From: an uncultured Planctomycetia bacterium
GTDB lineage: Bacteria; Omnitrophota; Gorgyraeia; 1-14-0-20-64-10
DNA: 64,000 nucleotides
Direction: 5' to 3'
Assembly (NCBI GenBank): GCA_964373715.1
Contig: CAYJVR010000003.1
Span: 47,050-111,049 of the forward strand
Each line of letters starts with the position of its first letter. Position 1 is the stretch's first letter. Under the pieces are notes generated by a model. That model was given only the letters and a program-made list of their open reading frames with translations. It searched no databases and was not told the origin of the DNA. The position numbers and the translations under genes are program-made. Shown in pieces: positions 3,878-48,476 of this stretch.

Positions 3878-4299
3878 AACTGCTCCAGAGATTTTCTTCC
3901 GGAAAACCCGGTTTCGATGTCATGCCAAAAGCGAACCCTATCCTCCCCCTCTTTCCAGCAGAGGTAGACCAAGGTCTCCCCGCGGGAGGCGAAAAAGTCG
4001 ACAAGCCCTTCATTGAGATCTTTCAACTCAACGCCGAGCCCATTGAACGCTTCGAGCTTCGCCTCAAAGACTTTCAGCCCCTCCTCAATGAGCTTGTCCA
4101 ACCGGGCCACCTCGGTTTCCGCCTTCGGGCTAACCGTCCCATCCTCCCGGAGCCACGAAAGCTCTTCAACCGTTTTCTTGCGCTCCACCCCGAAAATCTT
4201 CTCCCGTTGAACGCGCAGCTCCTTCAATCTCCCGGTAAGTTCCGGGATCATGCTGTTGGCCTCATCCGCGGTAAAAACTTTCAGTCCCTCATCCTTCAT
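3874..4299 (-). CDS. DUF2203 family coiled-coil protein
   Basis: 141 aa. The N-terminus MKxFTADEANSMIPELT matches DUF2203 starts. Translationally coupled to both neighbours. Confidence 0.5.
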   Translation of the reverse strand: MKDEGLKVFTADEANSMIPELTGRLKELRVQREKIFGVERKKTVEELSWLREDGTVSPKAETEVARLDKLIEEGLKVFEAKLEAFNGLGVELKDLNEGLVDFFASRGETLVYLCWKEGEDRVRFWHDIETGFSGRKSLEQF

Positions 4300-30740: not shown

Positions 30741-31535
30741 ATGAAAGCCTACCTGGATCTTATACGCCACATCATTGACAACGGCGCCAAAAAAACCGAC
30801 CGGACCGGCACCGGAACCTTATCCGTTTTCGGCTACCAGATGCGGTTTGACCTCACTCAGGGCTTCCCTCTGGTCACCACGAAGAAGATGCACACCAAAT
30901 CGGTGATCCATGAACTGCTCTGGTTCCTCCGCGGCGACACGAACGTGAAGTACCTTCACGACAACGGCGTCACGATCTGGGACGAGTGGGCCGACGCTCA
31001 AGGAGAGCTTGGGCCGGTCTACGGACATCAGTGGCGCAGTTGGCCGATACCCGAGGGCGGAACGATCGACCAGACCAGCCAAGTAGTCGAGATGATCAAA
31101 ACAAAGCCGGATTCCCGGCGGCTGATCGTCTGCGCCTGGAACGCGGCCGACATTGACAAGATGAAGCTGCCCCCCTGCCATTGCCTGTTTCAATTCTACG
31201 TGGCGGACGGAAAGCTCTCCTGCCAGCTTTACCAGCGCAGCGCCGACGTTTTCCTCGGCGTGCCGTTCAATATCGCCTCCTACGCTCTGCTCACGATGAT
31301 GGTCGCGCAGGTAACCGGCCTGAAGGCCGGCGAATTCATTCACACATTCGGCGACGCCCATCTTTACCTCAATCACCTGGAACAAGCGAAGCTTCAGCTC
31401 TCAAGGGAGCCGTTCCCGCTCCCAACAATGAAGCTGAATCCCGCAGTCAAATCAATCTTCAACTTTAAATACGAGGACTTCACTTTGGAGAATTACCAGT
31501 CCCACCCAAGCATTAAGGCCCCGATCGCCGTCTAA
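30741..31535 (+). CDS. thyA: Thymidylate synthase
   Basis: Start at [11 protein letters not shown]. Active-site PCH motif and the DRTGTGT region. Confidence 0.9.
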
Positions 31536-32077
31536 TGACCGTTTCCCTCATCGTCGCAGTTTCCCAGAACGGGGTGATCGGCGCCGACAACAAACTCCCC
31601 TGGCAGTTGACCGAGGACCTCAAACGGTTCAAGGAGATCACGATGGGCCACCCAATCGTCATGGGCAGAAAAACCTTCGAAGCGATCGGCAAACCCCTAC
31701 CCGGCCGAACCAACATCGTGATCACCCATCAAAAGGATTTCGCCTGCTGCGGCGTTCTGGTTGCAAACTCACTTGAACAAGCATTGGAAATCTGTGACCG
31801 TCGAGCGACCGCGCAGCGGTCGGAGGAAATAGTCGCGCATCCAATGAGCGCGGACCGCGCCGATCAGGAGGAGGTCTTCGTGATCGGCGGCGCCAGCATC
31901 TTCGAGCAGGCGATGCCTCTGGCCGACAACCTGTACCTTACGCTAATCCACCAGGATTTCGACGGGGACACCTTCTTCAAGTGGGATAAAACGCAGTGGA
32001 AGCAGGTCTCCCGAGAAAACCGGCCAGATCCGATCCCCTTCAGCTTCATCCTGCTCAAAAAAAGGAAAACACCTTGA
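31535..32077 (+). CDS. folA: Dihydrofolate reductase, with a ~20-aa insertion
   Basis: LIVAVSQNGVIG...LPW..DL..FK..T.G..IVMGRKT pattern. TAATG overlap with thyA. Confidence 0.85.
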   Translation: MTVSLIVAVSQNGVIGADNKLPWQLTEDLKRFKEITMGHPIVMGRKTFEAIGKPLPGRTNIVITHQKDFACCGVLVANSLEQALEICDRRATAQRSEEIVAHPMSADRADQEEVFVIGGASIFEQAMPLADNLYLTLIHQDFDGDTFFKWDKTQWKQVSRENRPDPIPFSFILLKKRKTP

Positions 32078-32133
32078 AAACGGCCGCGGCCCTTGTTTTC
32101 ATGCTGGCCTTCGCCCGCGTCAAAATCTAGAAA

Positions 32134-32433
32134 TCAAGCAGGCTGGAGAATCTCGGCGAGCTTTTCGGGATGGAGACGGCGCAATTCTGGAATCCTATAC
32201 TCCTCCGCCAGTTGTGCAAGCTTTCGATGTACCTGGACTGTGACTTTTCGGGGACGAACCCATAGAAGCTCTATTCCAACAAGATCCCCTTTGCTGTCCA
32301 AATCAAGATTCACAAAATCAGCATATTCTACAGTCTTCGAAACAGACTTCTCGCTCAAAGCGATATAGCTGGCTTTTGCTTGCGGATCATACGTTATCTC
32401 TAATATTTTAATCATCTTATGGAATCCACCCAC
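32134..32433 (-). CDS. DUF2283 domain protein (antitoxin-like partner of DUF4258)
   Basis: 99 aa, MKILEITYDPQAKASYIAL...GDLVGIELL pattern. Local GC clearly below the flanks. Confidence 0.6.
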   Translation of the reverse strand: MGGFHKMIKILEITYDPQAKASYIALSEKSVSKTVEYADFVNLDLDSKGDLVGIELLWVRPRKVTVQVHRKLAQLAEEYRIPELRRLHPEKLAEILQPA

Positions 32434-32651
32434 CCTGCAGTGATAACAATGATATTATCTCTATCCAATTCTACTACAGCAAAACAGGTTCTGCTTCCTA
32501 TTTCCTTCCAAAATTTCATTGTTCTGAGGAGCTTCCCAGGACTCTTTTTATCTGAATAACGCACTGTAGCGCGGATATGGTCGGGCGTTACCCCTCTCTG
32601 TTTCATTCTTTTATGAACGTGGTGGGTATAAATGAATCGCTGCATGACCAC
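32412..32651 (-). CDS. DUF4258 domain protein (toxin-like)
   Basis: 79 aa with a conserved HVxxRMxQRGV-like N-terminus. Overlaps the DUF2283 gene by 22 nt in an AT-rich island. Confidence 0.55.
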   Translation of the reverse strand: MVMQRFIYTHHVHKRMKQRGVTPDHIRATVRYSDKKSPGKLLRTMKFWKEIGSRTCFAVVELDRDNIIVITAGWVDSIR

Positions 32652-32757
32652 ATTATATCATGCAAATATATTGCAATAAAACATAATACCCGTATTGACA
32701 ACAACCCCCTTTCTACAACTTTCCTGTATTCAAACCTTCAGTTATACTATTAAGTCT

Positions 32758-34230
32758 ATGGCTAAGACACTGTTTGAAAAGGTGTGGGACCCGCACGTCG
32801 CGGTGCAGAACCCCGACGGCACGGTCCTGCTTTACATTGACCGCCACCTGGTGCATGAGGTCACCTCGCCGCAGGCCTTCGAAGGGCTGCGCCTGACCCA
32901 CCGGAAAGTGCGCCGGCCTGAGCTCACGTTCGCCACGATGGACCACAACGTGCCGACCTCCGCCACAGAGCGAGGCGGATCCGCCTCAGGCGGAAACGAC
33001 CGGATGAATATCGCCGACCCAATCTCGAAGGCGCAGATCGACGCCCTTTCAGAAAACTGCCGAGAGTTCGGTATTACCCTCTATGACTTGAAATCGGATA
33101 AACAGGGGATCGTCCACATCATCGGGCCGGAACTGGGGATCACCTTGCCCGGCTCAACGATCGTCTGCGGAGACTCCCACACCTCGACGCACGGGGCGTT
33201 CGGCACGCTGGCGTTCGGGATCGGCACCTCCGAGGTGGAACACGTGCTGGCCACCCAAACCCTGCCCCAGAAACGGCCGAAGACCTTTAAAGTGGAATAT
33301 ACAGGCACCCTGAAAGCCGGCTCAACTCCCAAGGACATGGTCCTGAAGATGATCGGGTTGATCGGCACCGCCGGCGGAACCGGCTACGTGATCGAGTACG
33401 CGGGCGAGGCTGTGCGGAAACTCTCGATGGAACAGCGGATGACGATCTGCAACATGACGATTGAGGCGGGAGCGCGGGCCGGCATGATCGGGCCGGATGA
33501 GACCACGTTCCAGTACGTCGCCTCCGGCAACCGGCCGTTCGCGCCGAAAGGGGCGAATCTCGAAAAGTCCCTGGCCTATTGGAAGACTCTGCCCTCCGAC
33601 CCGGAGGCGAAATTCGACCGGACGCTCTCTATCAACGCCTCGGAGATCGCACCGCAGGTCACCTGGGGGACAAACCCCGGCATGGTGATGGATGTGACCG
33701 GGCGGATCCCGGAACCGGACAAGGTGCCAGGCTACTCCCGGAAGGATGTCGAGCAGGCGCTCGCCTACATGGGGCTTACCCCCGGCACCCTGATCACCGA
33801 GATCAAGCTGGACCTGGTCTTCATCGGCAGCTGCACCAACGGCCGGATCGAGGATCTGCGGAGCGCGGCGAAGATTTTCAAAGGGAGAAAGGTGGCCAAA
33901 GGGATCAAAGTGCTGGTGGTCCCCGGCTCCGAGCAGGTGCGCAAGCAAGCGGAGAGCGAAGGGCTCGACAAGATCTACAGGGAGGCCGGCTGTGAGTGGC
34001 GGTTCGCCGGCTGTTCGATGTGCCTCGGGATGAACCCGGACCAGCTGAAGTCCGGCGAACGGTCGGCTTCGACGTCAAACCGGAACTTCGAGGGGCGGCA
34101 AGGCAAAGGGGGGCGCACCCACCTGGTCTCGCCGGAGATGGCGGCCGCCGCCGCGATCGAGGGGCATTTCGTGGACATCCGCACGTGGAATGAAAAACGA
34201 AAGGAAACCCTTACCCTTCCCTCTCCCTGA
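32758..34230 (+). CDS. leuC: 3-isopropylmalate dehydratase large subunit
   Basis: Aconitase-family Cys ligands and the [11 protein letters not shown] start. The stop codon sits in the loop of a GC-rich palindromic repeat. Confidence 0.9.
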
Positions 34231-34875: not shown

Positions 34876-37800
34876 TTACGCGTACATCAAGATGAAGTGG
34901 GCCCTTCCCTCCAGATCGGTAAAAAGTATCCCCTGCACATTCTGCGATGGGGGGATATTCAGCGTGTTTCGGAAAATCAGAACAAGCATCTGGACAGGGT
35001 CCAGGGCGGACACCGCCTCGGCTGTCGGATAAACGCGCACAGAGGCCATTTTCTCTGGCTTTACCTTCAGAGAATCCAGCATTTCGTTTTCGAGGATCAA
35101 GCCTATCTCTCCCCAGTTAAACCTGCGGAGCTCCTCTTCGGTCTCCGGAAGGACGGCCAACCGGAACGCAACACCGGCCAGAGGACCGGGCAGATGCTCC
35201 TTCGCTACCTTGTACAGTTCGGAACTTTGGACGTAAACGGGAACAACCGTCAAATCGAGCGTTGCCGTCACCGCCCGAGCTCCCTGCCTCCCCATGAACT
35301 CCTCTATCCTGTTCTGCTGTTTCTCAGTTAAGCGGCTGGAATATTCCGGCAGATAACTTTCCAAAATAGTTTTGGCGGTATGAATCTCTATGCCTTGAAT
35401 CGTCAGCGGCACAGCGGATATCTCTTTCCGGAAGGCGCTGCCGCCGACTCCGGTTTGCTTAAAATCAAACCTGCCTGCAATCCGGGCCATTTCACCGTTG
35501 TCCGACGAGTCGTTCACCCGTACCTCCTGCACCCCCGGTACCACCATTAAAGACCACAGAAGCTCCTGAAATATCCTCGCGCCTATTCCGACGGTCTGCA
35601 GGTCCTGTTGGACAGTAAATTCCGATATCCGCCCAACTGAAGGGGCCTCAGCATCGATCTCCGCGACCCCGAACCCAATAAGATCACTTCCCCGTCGCGC
35701 CCCCACGGCAAAACGTCCGTCTGCCTGAGACAACAGCTCCACGACGGCCTGGATGGGGGAGGGGTTTTCTTCCAAACTGGGAGCCAATCCGGCCGGCCCG
35801 CCCCGCAAGACCGGCTTCGGGAGATCCACCCTTCTCAACGGAAGCTTCATGACTTCTTGATTCTTCGCGTAGGAATACCACCGCATAGGAACCGCCAGAT
35901 ACTGCGCCTCCGATACGGAGCTGGCATGGACCATCACCACCTCGTTCATCCAAAGGGAGGGCTCAAAAGGCCCCCCTTCGTCCCACCGGCCGAAATTCAC
36001 CCTCAAGTTGTATTCGGAAAGATCCGGATAAACGAACTGCACAATCTCCGGCGTTGCGGCGTACACGAGAAAATTATTGCCCCGCGCCCAATCGGCAATG
36101 AGATCAATAGCTCCGCGTCTCCAAACATCCAGAGTACGGCACTGCAGCTGGTTGAACTTTTTATAGCCGTCGCCCGGCCGGGCTTCCTGAATCAAGACGG
36201 CAATCCGACCCTGTTTTGTCAAATAGGTGCTGACGAGAATCTGGCCGAACGCGCCTGGAGCCGCGGCGTAGTCCCCTCCTCCGTTAAACTGAAGAACCTG
36301 CAGCTCGGGATGGCTCTGAAAATCGCCGTAGGGAAAAACCTGGACTCTGTCATACTGACCTACCTGCATCTGGGCTTCCATGTTCCCGTACCGCTCTGTC
36401 TTCCAGCTAAATCTCCCGTTGGTCTTCAGCCAGCCCGCCAGATTACGGGAGAACACTCCCGGCACTTCAACCCCGCGCAACTCCGTCACAAACCCTCCGG
36501 GGCCGGCGGCAAACTCCGGCCTGAGAGCCCGCCAATAACGGCTCGGGAATAGCACTCCCGGCACCGGTTCATAACCCAGACTGCGGGCGGCGGCAACAAT
36601 CGGCTCATCCGGGTCATCGGCGCTCACTAAAGAGATCCCAATCCCCTGCTTTTCGAAATGGGCCTGGGCGGAGGCAAGCAGATTTCGGCTGGTTTTCGCG
36701 TCACGGTACGCCGGCAAAAGGACAAGCTCTGAAATTTGTCCGATCGATGCCGGGAAATCTTTCAGCGCACGAACGCGGACCTCGGCGAGCGCGTAACCCA
36801 CCACCCGGCCGGAACCTTCGTTCGCCACAACCAAAACCCCGAGGTCCGGGTTGCGGATCATCTCCCGGAAAAATCCCTTGCCCCCATCCTTGCCGGACTG
36901 TTTTGTCTCTAGCCCGGCTTGCTGTCTGAGTTGGATAACTTGGCCGAGGATCGGCTCTAAAACACTGTCGTCCCGGTTCTGAACGGGCCTGACCCCAATC
37001 TCTTCCAGGCCTGCCTCCGGCCCATTTGGGACCACCGGCTGCTGGGGCTCTGCCGGCAACTGCGCGGCGGCTGGAGGCTGCGCCGGCCGGCCGATATAGC
37101 GGTACCAGTTGAACTCTTTTGATTCATCGGTAAAATGGGATCTGCGCAAAATAAGAGGAACCGTTTCCCACCGCCGCGGCTCACGATCGGCCACCGGTAA
37201 ATAATAGTTGTACTGGATTGTCTTTTGCCGGATATCCGGCCGCTGTCCGCGCGCCTGTTCCGGCCGAATCAGATAGACCTCCATCCCCTGGCGCTTTCCC
37301 CATTCGCCGATGGCTTCAATGATTTCAGAGCGGATCTCGATTTCGTCCGGATGCTCCAAATTCAGCGGCCCGGCCAAGATCTGAACCCTTTCGATCACGA
37401 TGGCATCCTTGCCCTGCTCATCCTCATACCGGTCTAAGTAAACATGAACAAGCGCCCTGCCCAAATGAAAGTAATTTTGCCAAAGAAGGTTCCGCACCAA
37501 AAAATCATTTAACTCCGGACTGGTTTCAACCCACTCATTCAGGGCAATAGCGCCGATGATATTAAACGGCTTATCCCTGTCCACAAACCGGAGCGCAACC
37601 CGGGCCCGCCCATAATGTTCCGTATCCCTCTGAATCTCGCCGTACTGGATAAGGTACTGGTCCAGTTTGTCGGCCAAATCTCCCATCTTCACACGCATGA
37701 GGACCGGCGCCTTGGAAACCTCTGGTTCCTCCATGCCAGCCTTTCCTTTATAGAGAAACCAGAAGGCTTCCCCCTCCAACGTTGTGAGCAATGAGCCTGA

Positions 37801-38577
37801 AATCTTCAGAGGGGCCGATTCCCACGCCGCCCCATCGACAGACTCTTCATAGTTGCGCAGTCTGGTTGCCTCCCTCATATTGGGAAGGACCTTTTGAATA
37901 AGATCCGGCTGTATGAGATGTACAGGAATGCCGCGCGCTCTGCCCCACTCCCCGATCGCCTCCAGCAGAAGCGAGAGCCTGCCGGAAATCTCTTCCGAAT
38001 GATCCAAGCGGTCCACCCCGGCTAAGACCTCCACCCTTTCAATAAGCAGATGGTCTTTCCCTTCGGCCGTCTGGTAGCGGGCCAGCGACACCTGGACAAG
38101 CCCAGGGCCCAGATCCTCATAATTCCAGTTTGGAAGAACAACCAGATTCCCCTGGAGAACAGGCTGTGCCGACACCCATTCCCATGCCCCCAAAAGGGCC
38201 GCGGTGCCGGTAGCCTCGTCGTTCTGCACTATCCGCATGAAAACTCTCGCCTGGCCGTAGGCGGCCGTATCAAACCGGCTCTCTCCCCTCCGGGTCAACG
38301 CCTGGTCGAGATCTTCGGCAAGATCCCCTAAGGGGACCCGTTTCAAAACAAGCGGTTTTCCTTGCCGGACGGAAGGAGATTTTGGCCTGGAGATTTCCAG
38401 GGTAGCCGGCTGGGAGACGCCCGGAAGGCTGGACTTTGACTGGGGCACATCCACCAGGGAGTTGACGAGCTGCTGATCGAGACTCGCCCCTTCCGACGCG
38501 TTAGTTTGGCGCATCGCGAAGGCAGGCGAAGGTGTGGCAAGCAATAAGCTTAAACCAACGCTTATTGCCCGGCGCAT
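34876..38577 (-). CDS. Large secreted hypothetical protein: signal peptide, tandem duplicated ~200-aa domain of unknown function, then two GNAT-like acyltransferase-fold domains
   Basis: Signal peptide MRRAISVGLSLLLATPSPAFA. Residues ~85-290 and ~300-510 are clear paralogous repeats (VLKRVPLGDLAEDLDQ... versus VLMRVKMGDLADKLDQ..., both carrying an IERVxxLAG...EAIGEWGxxxG motif). There is a GNAT motif-A-like VQQDLQTVGIGARIF near residue ~1000 and a degenerate GNAT around residue ~650. The ORF track starts it 11 codons further upstream (38610). Confidence 0.6.
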   Translation of the reverse strand: MRRAISVGLSLLLATPSPAFAMRQTNASEGASLDQQLVNSLVDVPQSKSSLPGVSQPATLEISRPKSPSVRQGKPLVLKRVPLGDLAEDLDQALTRRGESRFDTAAYGQARVFMRIVQNDEATGTAALLGAWEWVSAQPVLQGNLVVLPNWNYEDLGPGLVQVSLARYQTAEGKDHLLIERVEVLAGVDRLDHSEEISGRLSLLLEAIGEWGRARGIPVHLIQPDLIQKVLPNMREATRLRNYEESVDGAAWESAPLKISGSLLTTLEGEAFWFLYKGKAGMEEPEVSKAPVLMRVKMGDLADKLDQYLIQYGEIQRDTEHYGRARVALRFVDRDKPFNIIGAIALNEWVETSPELNDFLVRNLLWQNYFHLGRALVHVYLDRYEDEQGKDAIVIERVQILAGPLNLEHPDEIEIRSEIIEAIGEWGKRQGMEVYLIRPEQARGQRPDIRQKTIQYNYYLPVADREPRRWETVPLILRRSHFTDESKEFNWYRYIGRPAQPPAAAQLPAEPQQPVVPNGPEAGLEEIGVRPVQNRDDSVLEPILGQVIQLRQQAGLETKQSGKDGGKGFFREMIRNPDLGVLVVANEGSGRVVGYALAEVRVRALKDFPASIGQISELVLLPAYRDAKTSRNLLASAQAHFEKQGIGISLVSADDPDEPIVAAARSLGYEPVPGVLFPSRYWRALRPEFAAGPGGFVTELRGVEVPGVFSRNLAGWLKTNGRFSWKTERYGNMEAQMQVGQYDRVQVFPYGDFQSHPELQVLQFNGGGDYAAAPGAFGQILVSTYLTKQGRIAVLIQEARPGDGYKKFNQLQCRTLDVWRRGAIDLIADWARGNNFLVYAATPEIVQFVYPDLSEYNLRVNFGRWDEGGPFEPSLWMNEVVMVHASSVSEAQYLAVPMRWYSYAKNQEVMKLPLRRVDLPKPVLRGGPAGLAPSLEENPSPIQAVVELLSQADGRFAVGARRGSDLIGFGVAEIDAEAPSVGRISEFTVQQDLQTVGIGARIFQELLWSLMVVPGVQEVRVNDSSDNGEMARIAGRFDFKQTGVGGSAFRKEISAVPLTIQGIEIHTAKTILESYLPEYSSRLTEKQQNRIEEFMGRQGARAVTATLDLTVVPVYVQSSELYKVAKEHLPGPLAGVAFRLAVLPETEEELRRFNWGEIGLILENEMLDSLKVKPEKMASVRVYPTAEAVSALDPVQMLVLIFRNTLNIPPSQNVQGILFTDLEGRAHFILMYA

Positions 38578-38747
38578 TGAGAGTGGCGTGTAGGCAGAAT
38601 CTATGATCATCTTATCTTTACAATCCAGTCAACCTATTAAGAAGTATGTCTGAAACAGGGCTAGAAATACAAGGGATAAAACAAGATTTATATTCCTTTA
38701 CTAGCTGAACGTGGGATTATTGTCATTGCGGGGGTTTACGCTGGCTT

Positions 38748-47210: not shown

Positions 47211-47741
47211 TCACTCCTCGTCCCAGTAGCGAGAATACTCAGCCAAATAGGTCAACGTCTTCAAATCCGGCATCCGGTCCAGGTAAACATTCCCCTGGAG
47301 GTGGTCCCACTCATGCTGGATGACCCGTGCATAAAACCCATCCGCCTTGAAATGGATCTTCTCTCCCTTTGCATTATACGCCTCCACCCCAACGGAACGC
47401 CAGCGGGGAACCCTTCCCCGCAAACCCTCCACCGAGAGACAACCCTCCCAATCTATCTCCTTCTGAGAGGAAGCCTGCTTGATCTTCGGGTTGATCAGCA
47501 CAATAAGGGGGATCTTAGGAGCCTTGGGGTAACGCTCACTCTCCTCAATACCAATAACAGCAAGCTGCAGCGAAACATGCACCTGCGGGGCGGCAACCCC
47601 CACTCCCGCATACTCATGCATCGTGTCAATCATATCCTGAATCAGGCTGTTCAGTTCGGGGGTACCGATCTTATCCACCGGGACAGGATCCGCCTTCTTT
47701 CGAAGCACAGGATGCCCTAAGCAGGAGACTTTCAGGATCAT
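47211..47741 (-). CDS. def: Peptide deformylase
   Basis: GVGVAAPQ, EGCLS and HEWDHL motifs. Confidence 0.9.
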   Translation of the reverse strand: MILKVSCLGHPVLRKKADPVPVDKIGTPELNSLIQDMIDTMHEYAGVGVAAPQVHVSLQLAVIGIEESERYPKAPKIPLIVLINPKIKQASSQKEIDWEGCLSVEGLRGRVPRWRSVGVEAYNAKGEKIHFKADGFYARVIQHEWDHLQGNVYLDRMPDLKTLTYLAEYSRYWDEE

Positions 47742-47809
47742 TGTTTCATTACCCCTTTCTTTGAAAAATTACTGTACCAAATTGCTTGTCCCTAAGCAAG
47801 TTCCGACAA

Positions 47810-47931
47810 TACATGACAAAATAGTCATGTTTTAAGCTATTTTAGGGTAAAATTAGAGTAGGGGACAGTGTCAAGTCTATATGGTGCTAAGACAGGAAGC
47901 TATAGTTGACAAATTAGTCATGTATCTATAA
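47810..47931 (+). promoter_or_regulatory. suf operon control region: two Rrf2-operator-like palindromes and a promoter
   Basis: Perfect inverted repeat ACATGAC-AAAATA-GTCATGT at 47810-47829. A related site TTGACAAATTAGTCATGTA at 47905-47923 overlaps a TTGACA -35 and TATAAA -10 (47926-47931). AT-rich, immediately upstream of the Rrf2 gene. Confidence 0.55.
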
Positions 47932-47975
47932 AATAAAGATTCTTCATGGGAATTTACCCAAAAACAGGTGTCAAG

Positions 47976-48476
47976 ATGAAGATAAGCGCTCAAGAAGAAT
48001 ACGGGTTACGGTGCCTCCTTCAGCTGGCCAAAGCCGGTGAAAACGCCGGCCTGACGGTCAGAGAGATCGCACATCGGGAGGGGCTTTCCCCCGCCTATGT
48101 GGAAAAACTGCTGAGGGTCTTAAACAAGGCCGGTCTGACTCAATCGGTCAGGGGAATCAAGGGGGGGTACCACCTCACTAAGAAACCTCAGGAGATCAAC
48201 CTATCCATGGTGGTGCGGGCCATGGGAAAAGTTCCCTCGGCGCAGGAGATCTGCGAGCGCTACACGGGCAACCAGAAGAGCTGCGTCCATATTGACAGTT
48301 GCTGCGTCCGGTCGGCATGGTCCAGCCTGACGCAGGTTATGGAAGAGTTCCTCGAAGGGATTTCCCTTTTGGATCTTTTAGGGTCGGAAACGAAAATGAA
48401 CCAGCTTCTCAGCCAACGGATCGCGTTCGGCGGGAAGCCATCCACAAATGAACATGGAGCCGGATTCAAAATATGA
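47976..48476 (+). CDS. Rrf2 family transcriptional regulator (IscR/SufR-like, 3-Cys cluster ligands)
   Basis: N-terminal w[21 protein letters not shown]. Cys cluster [11 protein letters not shown]. Start chosen at the internal ATG 47976. Confidence 0.8.

Follow-up and report, generated by a model that had tools for sequence, protein, structure and literature searches.

What are the two small, AT-rich genes that lie between folA and leuC in the genome of an uncultured Planctomycetia bacterium (GTDB phylum Omnitrophota), and how did they come to be there? The genes stand near the middle of a stretch of 64,000 nucleotides (nt) of contig CAYJVR010000003.1, which was analyzed as a whole and is referred to here as the window. 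An initial annotation had described the locus as a horizontally acquired low-GC islet encoding a DUF4258/DUF2283 toxin–antitoxin-like pair. Our analysis leads us to consider it fairly probable that the two genes form a self-contained, evolutionarily mobile toxin–antitoxin-like cassette, with the DUF4258 protein as predicted toxin and the DUF2283 protein as its putative antitoxin.

The islet was apparent by several measures. The folA–leuC gap is 680 nt long and holds two minus-strand open reading frames (ORFs), and Pfam identified the flanking genes as thymidylate synthase, dihydrofolate reductase (DHFR), and the large and small subunits of an aconitase-family enzyme (leuC/leuD). The GC content of the cassette genes (minus strand, 32134–32645) is 0.442, compared with a window mean of 0.577. 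This corresponds to z = −4.1 among 518-nt windows (standard deviation 0.033), of which 0.5% are equally low, and the 518-nt window with the lowest GC of the entire 64 kb starts at 32261. The GC content at third codon positions (GC3) is 0.41 and 0.43 in the two cassette genes, versus 0.74–0.82 in thyA, folA, leuC, and leuD and 0.727 ± 0.076 (minimum 0.554) in 45 long ORFs of the window. Only a def/iscR-like region near 47.5 kb rivals the islet in AT-richness. About 110 nt of the originally delimited islet (32646–32757, GC 0.32) is not foreign coding DNA; it is native, AT-rich promoter DNA from which the cassette and leuC diverge. The leuC promoter region is likewise AT-rich in the related locus L001 (GC 0.37).

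The gene models required revision. The 79- and 99-amino-acid (aa) frames with a 22-nt overlap that were originally reported do exist as maximal ORFs (32412–32651 and 32134–32433, both with GTG starts), but as gene models they are probably too long. All 13 toxin homologues begin at MQRF, which corresponds to the ATG at 32645 in the window. The partner homologues all begin with MK(I/V)LE, corresponding to the ATG at 32415, and NCBI record P0004 is the exact 93-aa form of the partner. Because of these homologue starts and this record, we adopted a 77-aa toxin gene (32412–32645, minus strand; stop TGA at 32414–32412) and a 93-aa partner gene (32134–32415, minus strand). The two genes therefore most likely overlap by 4 nt, the ATGA seen in the sequence at 32412–32415 (minus strand), and not by 22 nt. 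This fusion of stop and start codons suggests that translation of the partner is coupled to that of the toxin.

The toxin matched Pfam DUF4258 (PF14076) over model positions 1–69 of 71, with 26.1 bits against a cutoff of 25 (E = 1.1e-5), so that the family assignment held by a narrow margin. The same family was precomputed for all 13 close toxin homologues. A search with a profile of the subfamily against 1.84 billion proteins retrieved 1140 representative proteins at E ≤ 1e-3, including one close 50%-identity cluster only (E = 4e-41); the next match was at 3e-15. The predicted structure, with a predicted local distance difference test (pLDDT) score of 93, has the order beta-alpha-alpha-beta-beta-beta-beta. 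It was closest to the ribonuclease (RNase) toxin BrnT, followed by ParE, YoeB, YafQ, HigB, MqsR, and colicins E5 and D. The modelled fold is thus of the BECR/RelE type, and we regard the protein as a predicted RNase. In 47 diverse members of the family, the only invariant columns were H9, R13, and R17, which form an H-x3-R-x3-R motif in helix 1. All three are kept in the window toxin, as are T69 and the near-invariant positions of the subfamily, and the ORF is of full length. A survey of RelE/ParE toxins places DUF4258 with the BECR toxins (PMC11980606), and the domain has been tabled, at the C-terminus of CdiA, as "tRNase (?)" (PMC11630599). Sequence matches in PDB to designer pentatricopeptide repeat proteins (E = 1e-13) were rejected as an artefact, because the score sums ten "MKEKGIVPD"-like repeats and no single stretch is significant. 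Separately, two larger proteins, P0068 (438 aa) and P0177 (464 aa), each contain four tandem stretches that match the DUF4258 profile and are multi-copy toxin-domain proteins.

The assignment of the partner was clearer. It matched Pfam DUF2283 (PF10049) with 47.1 bits against a cutoff of 23 (E = 2.6e-12), and PF10049 was precomputed for all 31 partner homologues. Its predicted structure (pLDDT 87) consists of a five-stranded beta domain (residues 6–51), corresponding to DUF2283, and three helices after it (57–90). This helical tail is very strongly conserved within the subfamily and is kept whatever gene precedes DUF2283 (P0032). Two uses of the family name in the literature were set aside: the label "DUF2283" for FseA/QseM in PMC4755241, whose accession was not confirmed and on which we did not rely, and the use of PF10049 for a calcineurin-like phosphatase in PMC6733907, which is a wrong accession.

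We found a conserved signal immediately upstream of the toxin gene. A predicted extended −10 promoter, TGATATAAT (32652–32660, minus strand), lies 6 nt before the toxin ATG, without a Shine-Dalgarno sequence. In each of the 10 loci read, the pattern TGnTAnnnT stands ahead of the toxin ATG, and the sequence farther upstream is unrelated between loci. The distance from the −10 element to the ATG is 6 nt in the window, L090, L094, L101, L107, and L112, and 8–10 nt in L089, L100, L113, and L099. Within the window, this arrangement occurs at one of 1721 ATG triplets, namely that of the toxin. The conservation of the element indicates, therefore, that the cassette brings its own promoter, which a generic two-hexamer scan misses because it has no −35 element. 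The arrangement implies that the toxin mRNA would be leaderless or nearly so. The leuC gene shows a comparable configuration: between a −10-like TATACT at 32743–32748 and the leuC ATG at 32758 lie 9 nt. The same TATACT, 9-nt spacing, and ATG are conserved in the window, L089 (~130–160), and L001 (~3887–3905), without an obvious Shine-Dalgarno sequence. This spacing suggests that very short or absent 5′ leaders may be common in the lineage. A candidate operator, the 7-bp inverted repeat TGCATGA-N10-TCATGCA covering the −10 box and the start codon, was not conserved in other loci and was rejected.

The two genes recur together in other genomes. In every locus read that has a close toxin homologue, the toxin gene comes first and a DUF2283 gene lies directly downstream. 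Nine further loci with the pair were read, and in each the two genes overlap or abut: the junction is ATGA or GTGA in L089, L090, L094, L100, and L113, the genes lie 2 nt apart in L101 and L112, and in L099, whose pair is 42% identical, they abut directly. The close subfamily occupies at least six unrelated neighborhoods. These are folA/leuC (window, L089, and L113); rpsU with a TonB-like gene (L090–L093); dnaE with HU-hisS-aspS (L094–L098 and L106, including Omnitrophica WOR_2 RIFCSPHIGHO2_02_FULL_68_15); birA with uvrB (L112); and two more contexts in L100 and L101. A PilZ gene adjoins the divergent pair of L099. The named relatives that carry the pair are Omnitrophica metagenome-assembled genomes (MAGs). 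Across loci, toxin and partner identities co-vary, with r = 0.54 within the subfamily and 0.94 when L099 is added, neither value being corrected for phylogeny.

These observations agree with the earlier description of a recurrent toxin–antitoxin-like gene pair, given the same order and junction in so many settings. The statement that the pair is "widely predicted" found no confirmation, as our literature search found no paper naming DUF4258 and DUF2283 together. A divergent version, annotated in RefSeq as DUF4258 followed by DUF2283, resides on a small plasmid of Thermus thermophilus; its DUF4258 protein scores below the Pfam threshold (15.4 bits). The window toxin had no tblastn match in plasmids or phages and none in IMG/VR, and a typical DUF4258 representative, P0055, had no plasmid match either. 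The partner had only weak matches, to Thermus plasmids, Acidiphilium plasmids, and one archaeal virus (E = 9e-3).

Public records apparently lack an annotation of the toxin gene. The folA–leuC gap has no gene calls on six Logan contigs of the same strain (L083–L088), and the toxin gene is also uncalled in the relative L113 (630–863), where the ORF is intact. The window toxin was not found, with any start, in a collection of 15 billion proteins, and an identical or near-identical protein was likewise absent from it. Missing gene calls are probably also the reason why the database yielded 31 partner homologues and only 13 toxin homologues. As the toxin gene is often missed by gene callers, "orphan" DUF2283 genes in annotations may conceal complete pairs. 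Apart from this, five independent assemblies of the same strain (L083–L087) stop at one point, ~198 nt into leuC; this common end suggests that the assembly graphs branch or contain a repeat there at the strain level.

We then considered when and how the pair reached its position. In three diverged relatives that carry the pair, or DUF2283 alone, beside folA, the FolA protein is only 60–67% identical to that of the window, and the insertion is therefore probably not recent. The gap differs among these relatives. It holds an additional 206-aa ORF in L089 and a 162-aa ORF with a 187-nt spacer in L113. In L001 (Ca. Omnitrophica MAG GCA_016201735.1, 3887–6277), the gap contains BrnT/CopG, DUF6941, HEPN_AbiU2, and DUF2283 and lacks DUF4258; no toxin remnant was detected in L001 or L002 by tblastn at E ≤ 1. 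Rather than marking a recent insertion, the folA–leuC gap seems to be a long-standing hotspot for conflict cassettes, with variable content. A scan of genome contigs with generic DHFR motifs gave no relative with an empty gap; among the matches listed, the DHFRs were 41–50% identical and came from unrelated phyla. The pair is AT-richer than its flanks in every host, yet its GC partly follows that of the host, being 0.59–0.60 in a host of 0.67 and 0.36–0.38 in a host of 0.46. The L089 partner gene has a host-like GC3 of 0.75, versus ~0.42 in the window copy, and replacement of the allele from a lower-GC donor is a possible source of the low GC3 in the window. Within single pairs, GC3 was also uneven: the toxin and partner have 0.49 and 0.75 in L089 (243–751), and 0.53 and 0.69 in L113. 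The mosaic composition in L089 hints at recombination within the cassette.

No mobility gene, integrase, or tRNA gene was found at the cassette, and a search for target-site duplications or att-like flanking repeats gave 10–11-nt chance matches only. Judged from its many neighborhoods and its composition, the cassette nevertheless appears clearly mobile on an evolutionary timescale. The claim of horizontal acquisition is accordingly retained, on the strength of the non-native composition and the unrelated neighborhoods, although the event is probably not recent. Both ORFs match the hidden Markov models of their families, the composition is non-native, and the pair is not part of a uniform core synteny.

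Taken as a toxin–antitoxin-like cassette, the pair could work as follows. Transcription from its own extended −10 promoter would yield a leaderless mRNA, from which the toxin, an endoribonuclease acting on mRNA or tRNA, would be made and would arrest translation. The DUF2283 protein would be produced by coupled re-initiation and would neutralize the toxin by direct binding, in the manner of antitoxins and CdiI immunity proteins. Depletion of the partner would free the toxin, which might then stabilize the locus or abort phage infection. Autoregulation, if there is any, would proceed by some other route, because no known DNA-binding domain is present.

Several points weigh against this interpretation. 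No recognizable DNA-binding domain was found in the partner, unlike in classical type II antitoxins. The DUF4258 score is marginal, just 1 bit over the cutoff, and no other member of the subfamily is as diverged as the window toxin (60–74% identity to the others, versus 70–83% for most other pairs), whose divergence could be a sign of attenuation. DUF4258 is listed among BECR toxin families without a target or references, as "undescribed in the literature" (PMC11980606). Searches of the window proteins against NCBIfam, PADLOC, and PHROGs gave nothing useful, and the missing NCBIfam and PADLOC matches count here; in PADLOC-DB 2.0, neither protein matched any family at E ≤ 0.01. In addition, L001/L002 contain an intact, 78%-identical DUF2283 gene without any DUF4258, located 11 nt after a HEPN_AbiU2 gene, and further DUF2283 genes come after HEPN, ParE, or DUF5647 genes. 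DUF2283 is thus not tied to DUF4258 as its only partner. A second arrangement of HEPN followed by DUF2283 was found in L109 (1795–2420), where the HEPN protein matches the PADLOC candidate defense protein PDC-M05B. On the Acidiphilium plasmid, the ParE gene beside DUF2283 already has a CopG antitoxin, and DUF2283 may there be an unrelated neighbor of ParE/CopG.

The variety of genes upstream of DUF2283 would also fit a system that is not a classical toxin–antitoxin pair. DUF2283 might be a generic adaptor, sensor, or regulator of small nucleases (DUF4258, HEPN, ParE, and DUF5647) in an abortive-infection or conflict system, controlling their activation rather than sequestering them. Its occurrence downstream of four different partner types, the PDC-M05B match of the L109 HEPN protein, the conservation of the C-terminal tail regardless of partner, and the lack of a DNA-binding domain all accord with such a role. 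We nevertheless consider it unlikely: no PADLOC model matches either window protein, the identities of toxin and partner co-vary, translational coupling as tight as this typically goes with stoichiometric neutralization, and the Acidiphilium example may reflect mere proximity. Loss of function must also be weighed. The pair could be a remnant, decayed or domesticated, whose ORFs are intact but whose toxin is inactive or weakened and which plays no part in addiction or defense. Consistent with decay are the greater divergence of the window toxin than of its partner relative to the subfamily, the apparent age of the folA-adjacent position, the complete loss of the toxin in L001, and the failure of public gene callers to call the toxin gene. 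The last point loses weight with L113, where an intact toxin gene is likewise uncalled, and the full-length ORFs, the retained near-invariant positions together with H9/R13/R17/T69, and the intact promoter and ATGA junction speak for function. We judge a remnant to be as improbable as the adaptor role.

Less probable than either is an entirely native origin of the low GC, in which the pair would belong to the vertical gene stock and its composition would result from the small size of the genes, the divergent promoter, and selection that favors AT-richness in weakly expressed genes. DUF2283 does occur beside folA in four relatives, the GC of the pair partly follows that of the host, the AT-richness of the leuC promoter is native, and an integrase, a tRNA gene, and a flanking repeat were all not found. 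Against this, the pair occurs in at least five other unrelated neighborhoods of related genomes, the gap content is different in each folA-adjacent relative, and the GC3 of both genes lies well below the minimum among the 45 long ORFs. The host-like GC3 of the L089 partner points the same way, as long vertical residence should have ameliorated the window copy too. A mobile toxin–antitoxin-like cassette thus remains our preferred explanation. A broader proposal is improbable, although we rate it a little above the adaptor and remnant explanations. Here, DUF2283 would be an undescribed class of antitoxin or immunity protein without a DNA-binding domain and with a distant kinship to the CdiI fold, interchangeable behind unrelated RNase toxins (BECR DUF4258, HEPN/AbiU2, and possibly ParE); the folA–leuC gap would be a conserved landing pad in an Omnitrophota lineage, and the cassettes would be expressed as leaderless mRNAs.

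The surroundings of the cassette are of native composition. On the left, folA (31535–32077, plus strand) encodes DHFR (Pfam DHFR_1, E = 6e-57; GC3 0.735), and on the right, leuC (32758–34230, plus strand) encodes the large subunit of 3-isopropylmalate dehydratase (Pfam Aconitase, E = 1.7e-179; GC3 0.82). The stop codons of folA and of the DUF2283 gene converge on a 56-nt spacer (32078–32133) that contains a weak GC-rich hairpin. A terminator function is not supported at this point, as the inverted repeats examined between the two genes (I3 and I4) fold no better than shuffled sequences (z = −1.4 and −1.1). Rfam gave no family at gathering score, and thus no riboswitch, leader, or small RNA, anywhere in the 64 kb, including upstream of leuC. 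The FolA protein of the window has an insertion of ~21 residues (residues ~89–109, RRATAQRSEEIVAHPMSADRA) that the DHFR of the syntenic MAG L001, 67% identical, lacks. Second to the islet in AT-richness within the window is 47400–48300 (GC ~0.46), which was rejected as another islet; it consists of the end of a peptide deformylase gene and the intergenic region before genes for an Rrf2/IscR-like regulator and a SufC-like ATPase. Farther along, a 1244-aa ORF (34876–38610, minus strand) showed weak Pfam matches to the GNAT families Acetyltransf_1 and Acetyltransf_10, with no single stretch significant alone. A long internal repeat occurs at least twice in its translation, e.g. as PLGDLAEDLDQALTRRGESRFDTAAYGQARVFMRIV and KMGDLADKLDQYLIQYGEIQRDTEHYGRARVALRFV, and the remainder has no family match.

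If functional, the pair would provide the first defined partner protein for the DUF4258 branch of the RelE/ParE (BECR) superfamily, in a format (77 + 93 aa) compact enough for testing. Our comparison also suggests that DUF2283 accompanies several different nuclease toxins. The features of note are this association with several RNase toxin classes, the conserved leaderless-type promoter, and the under-annotation of the toxin.

Among known systems, the structural likeness is greatest to BrnT/BrnA of Brucella abortus (PDB 3u97), and it is structural only: the window toxin is 13% identical to BrnT and does not match PF04365 (BrnT_toxin) at E ≤ 1, and its conserved residues sit in helix 1 (H-x3-R-x3-R). 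BrnA is a CopG/ribbon-helix-helix DNA-binding antitoxin, whereas the partner described here is a DUF2283 beta domain without a known DNA-binding fold. The cassette is therefore not a member of BrnT/BrnA. With the type II toxins RelE, ParE, HigB, and YoeB, the window toxin shares the BECR fold, but the antitoxin class is different. A survey of RelE/ParE toxins (PMC11980606) described DUF4258 in antitoxin-first arrangements and in MqsA fusions; here, the toxin comes first and is followed by DUF2283. A comparison can also be drawn with HEPN toxin–antitoxin pairs (HEPN/MNT and AbiU2). The window cassette has neither a HEPN protein nor an MNT nucleotidyltransferase, and yet DUF2283 of the same subfamily follows a HEPN RNase gene in L001/L002 and L109 just as it follows DUF4258 here. 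The CdiA-CT/CdiI pairs of contact-dependent growth inhibition (CDI; NC101, 5i4q, and EC869, 7vmc) offer a further parallel; among them, Escherichia coli CDI class 8 has a DUF4258 C-terminal domain. Set beside these systems, the family is uncharacterized but its toxin–antitoxin logic is familiar, and the locus is one more small chromosomal toxin–antitoxin-like module, from an uncultivated lineage.

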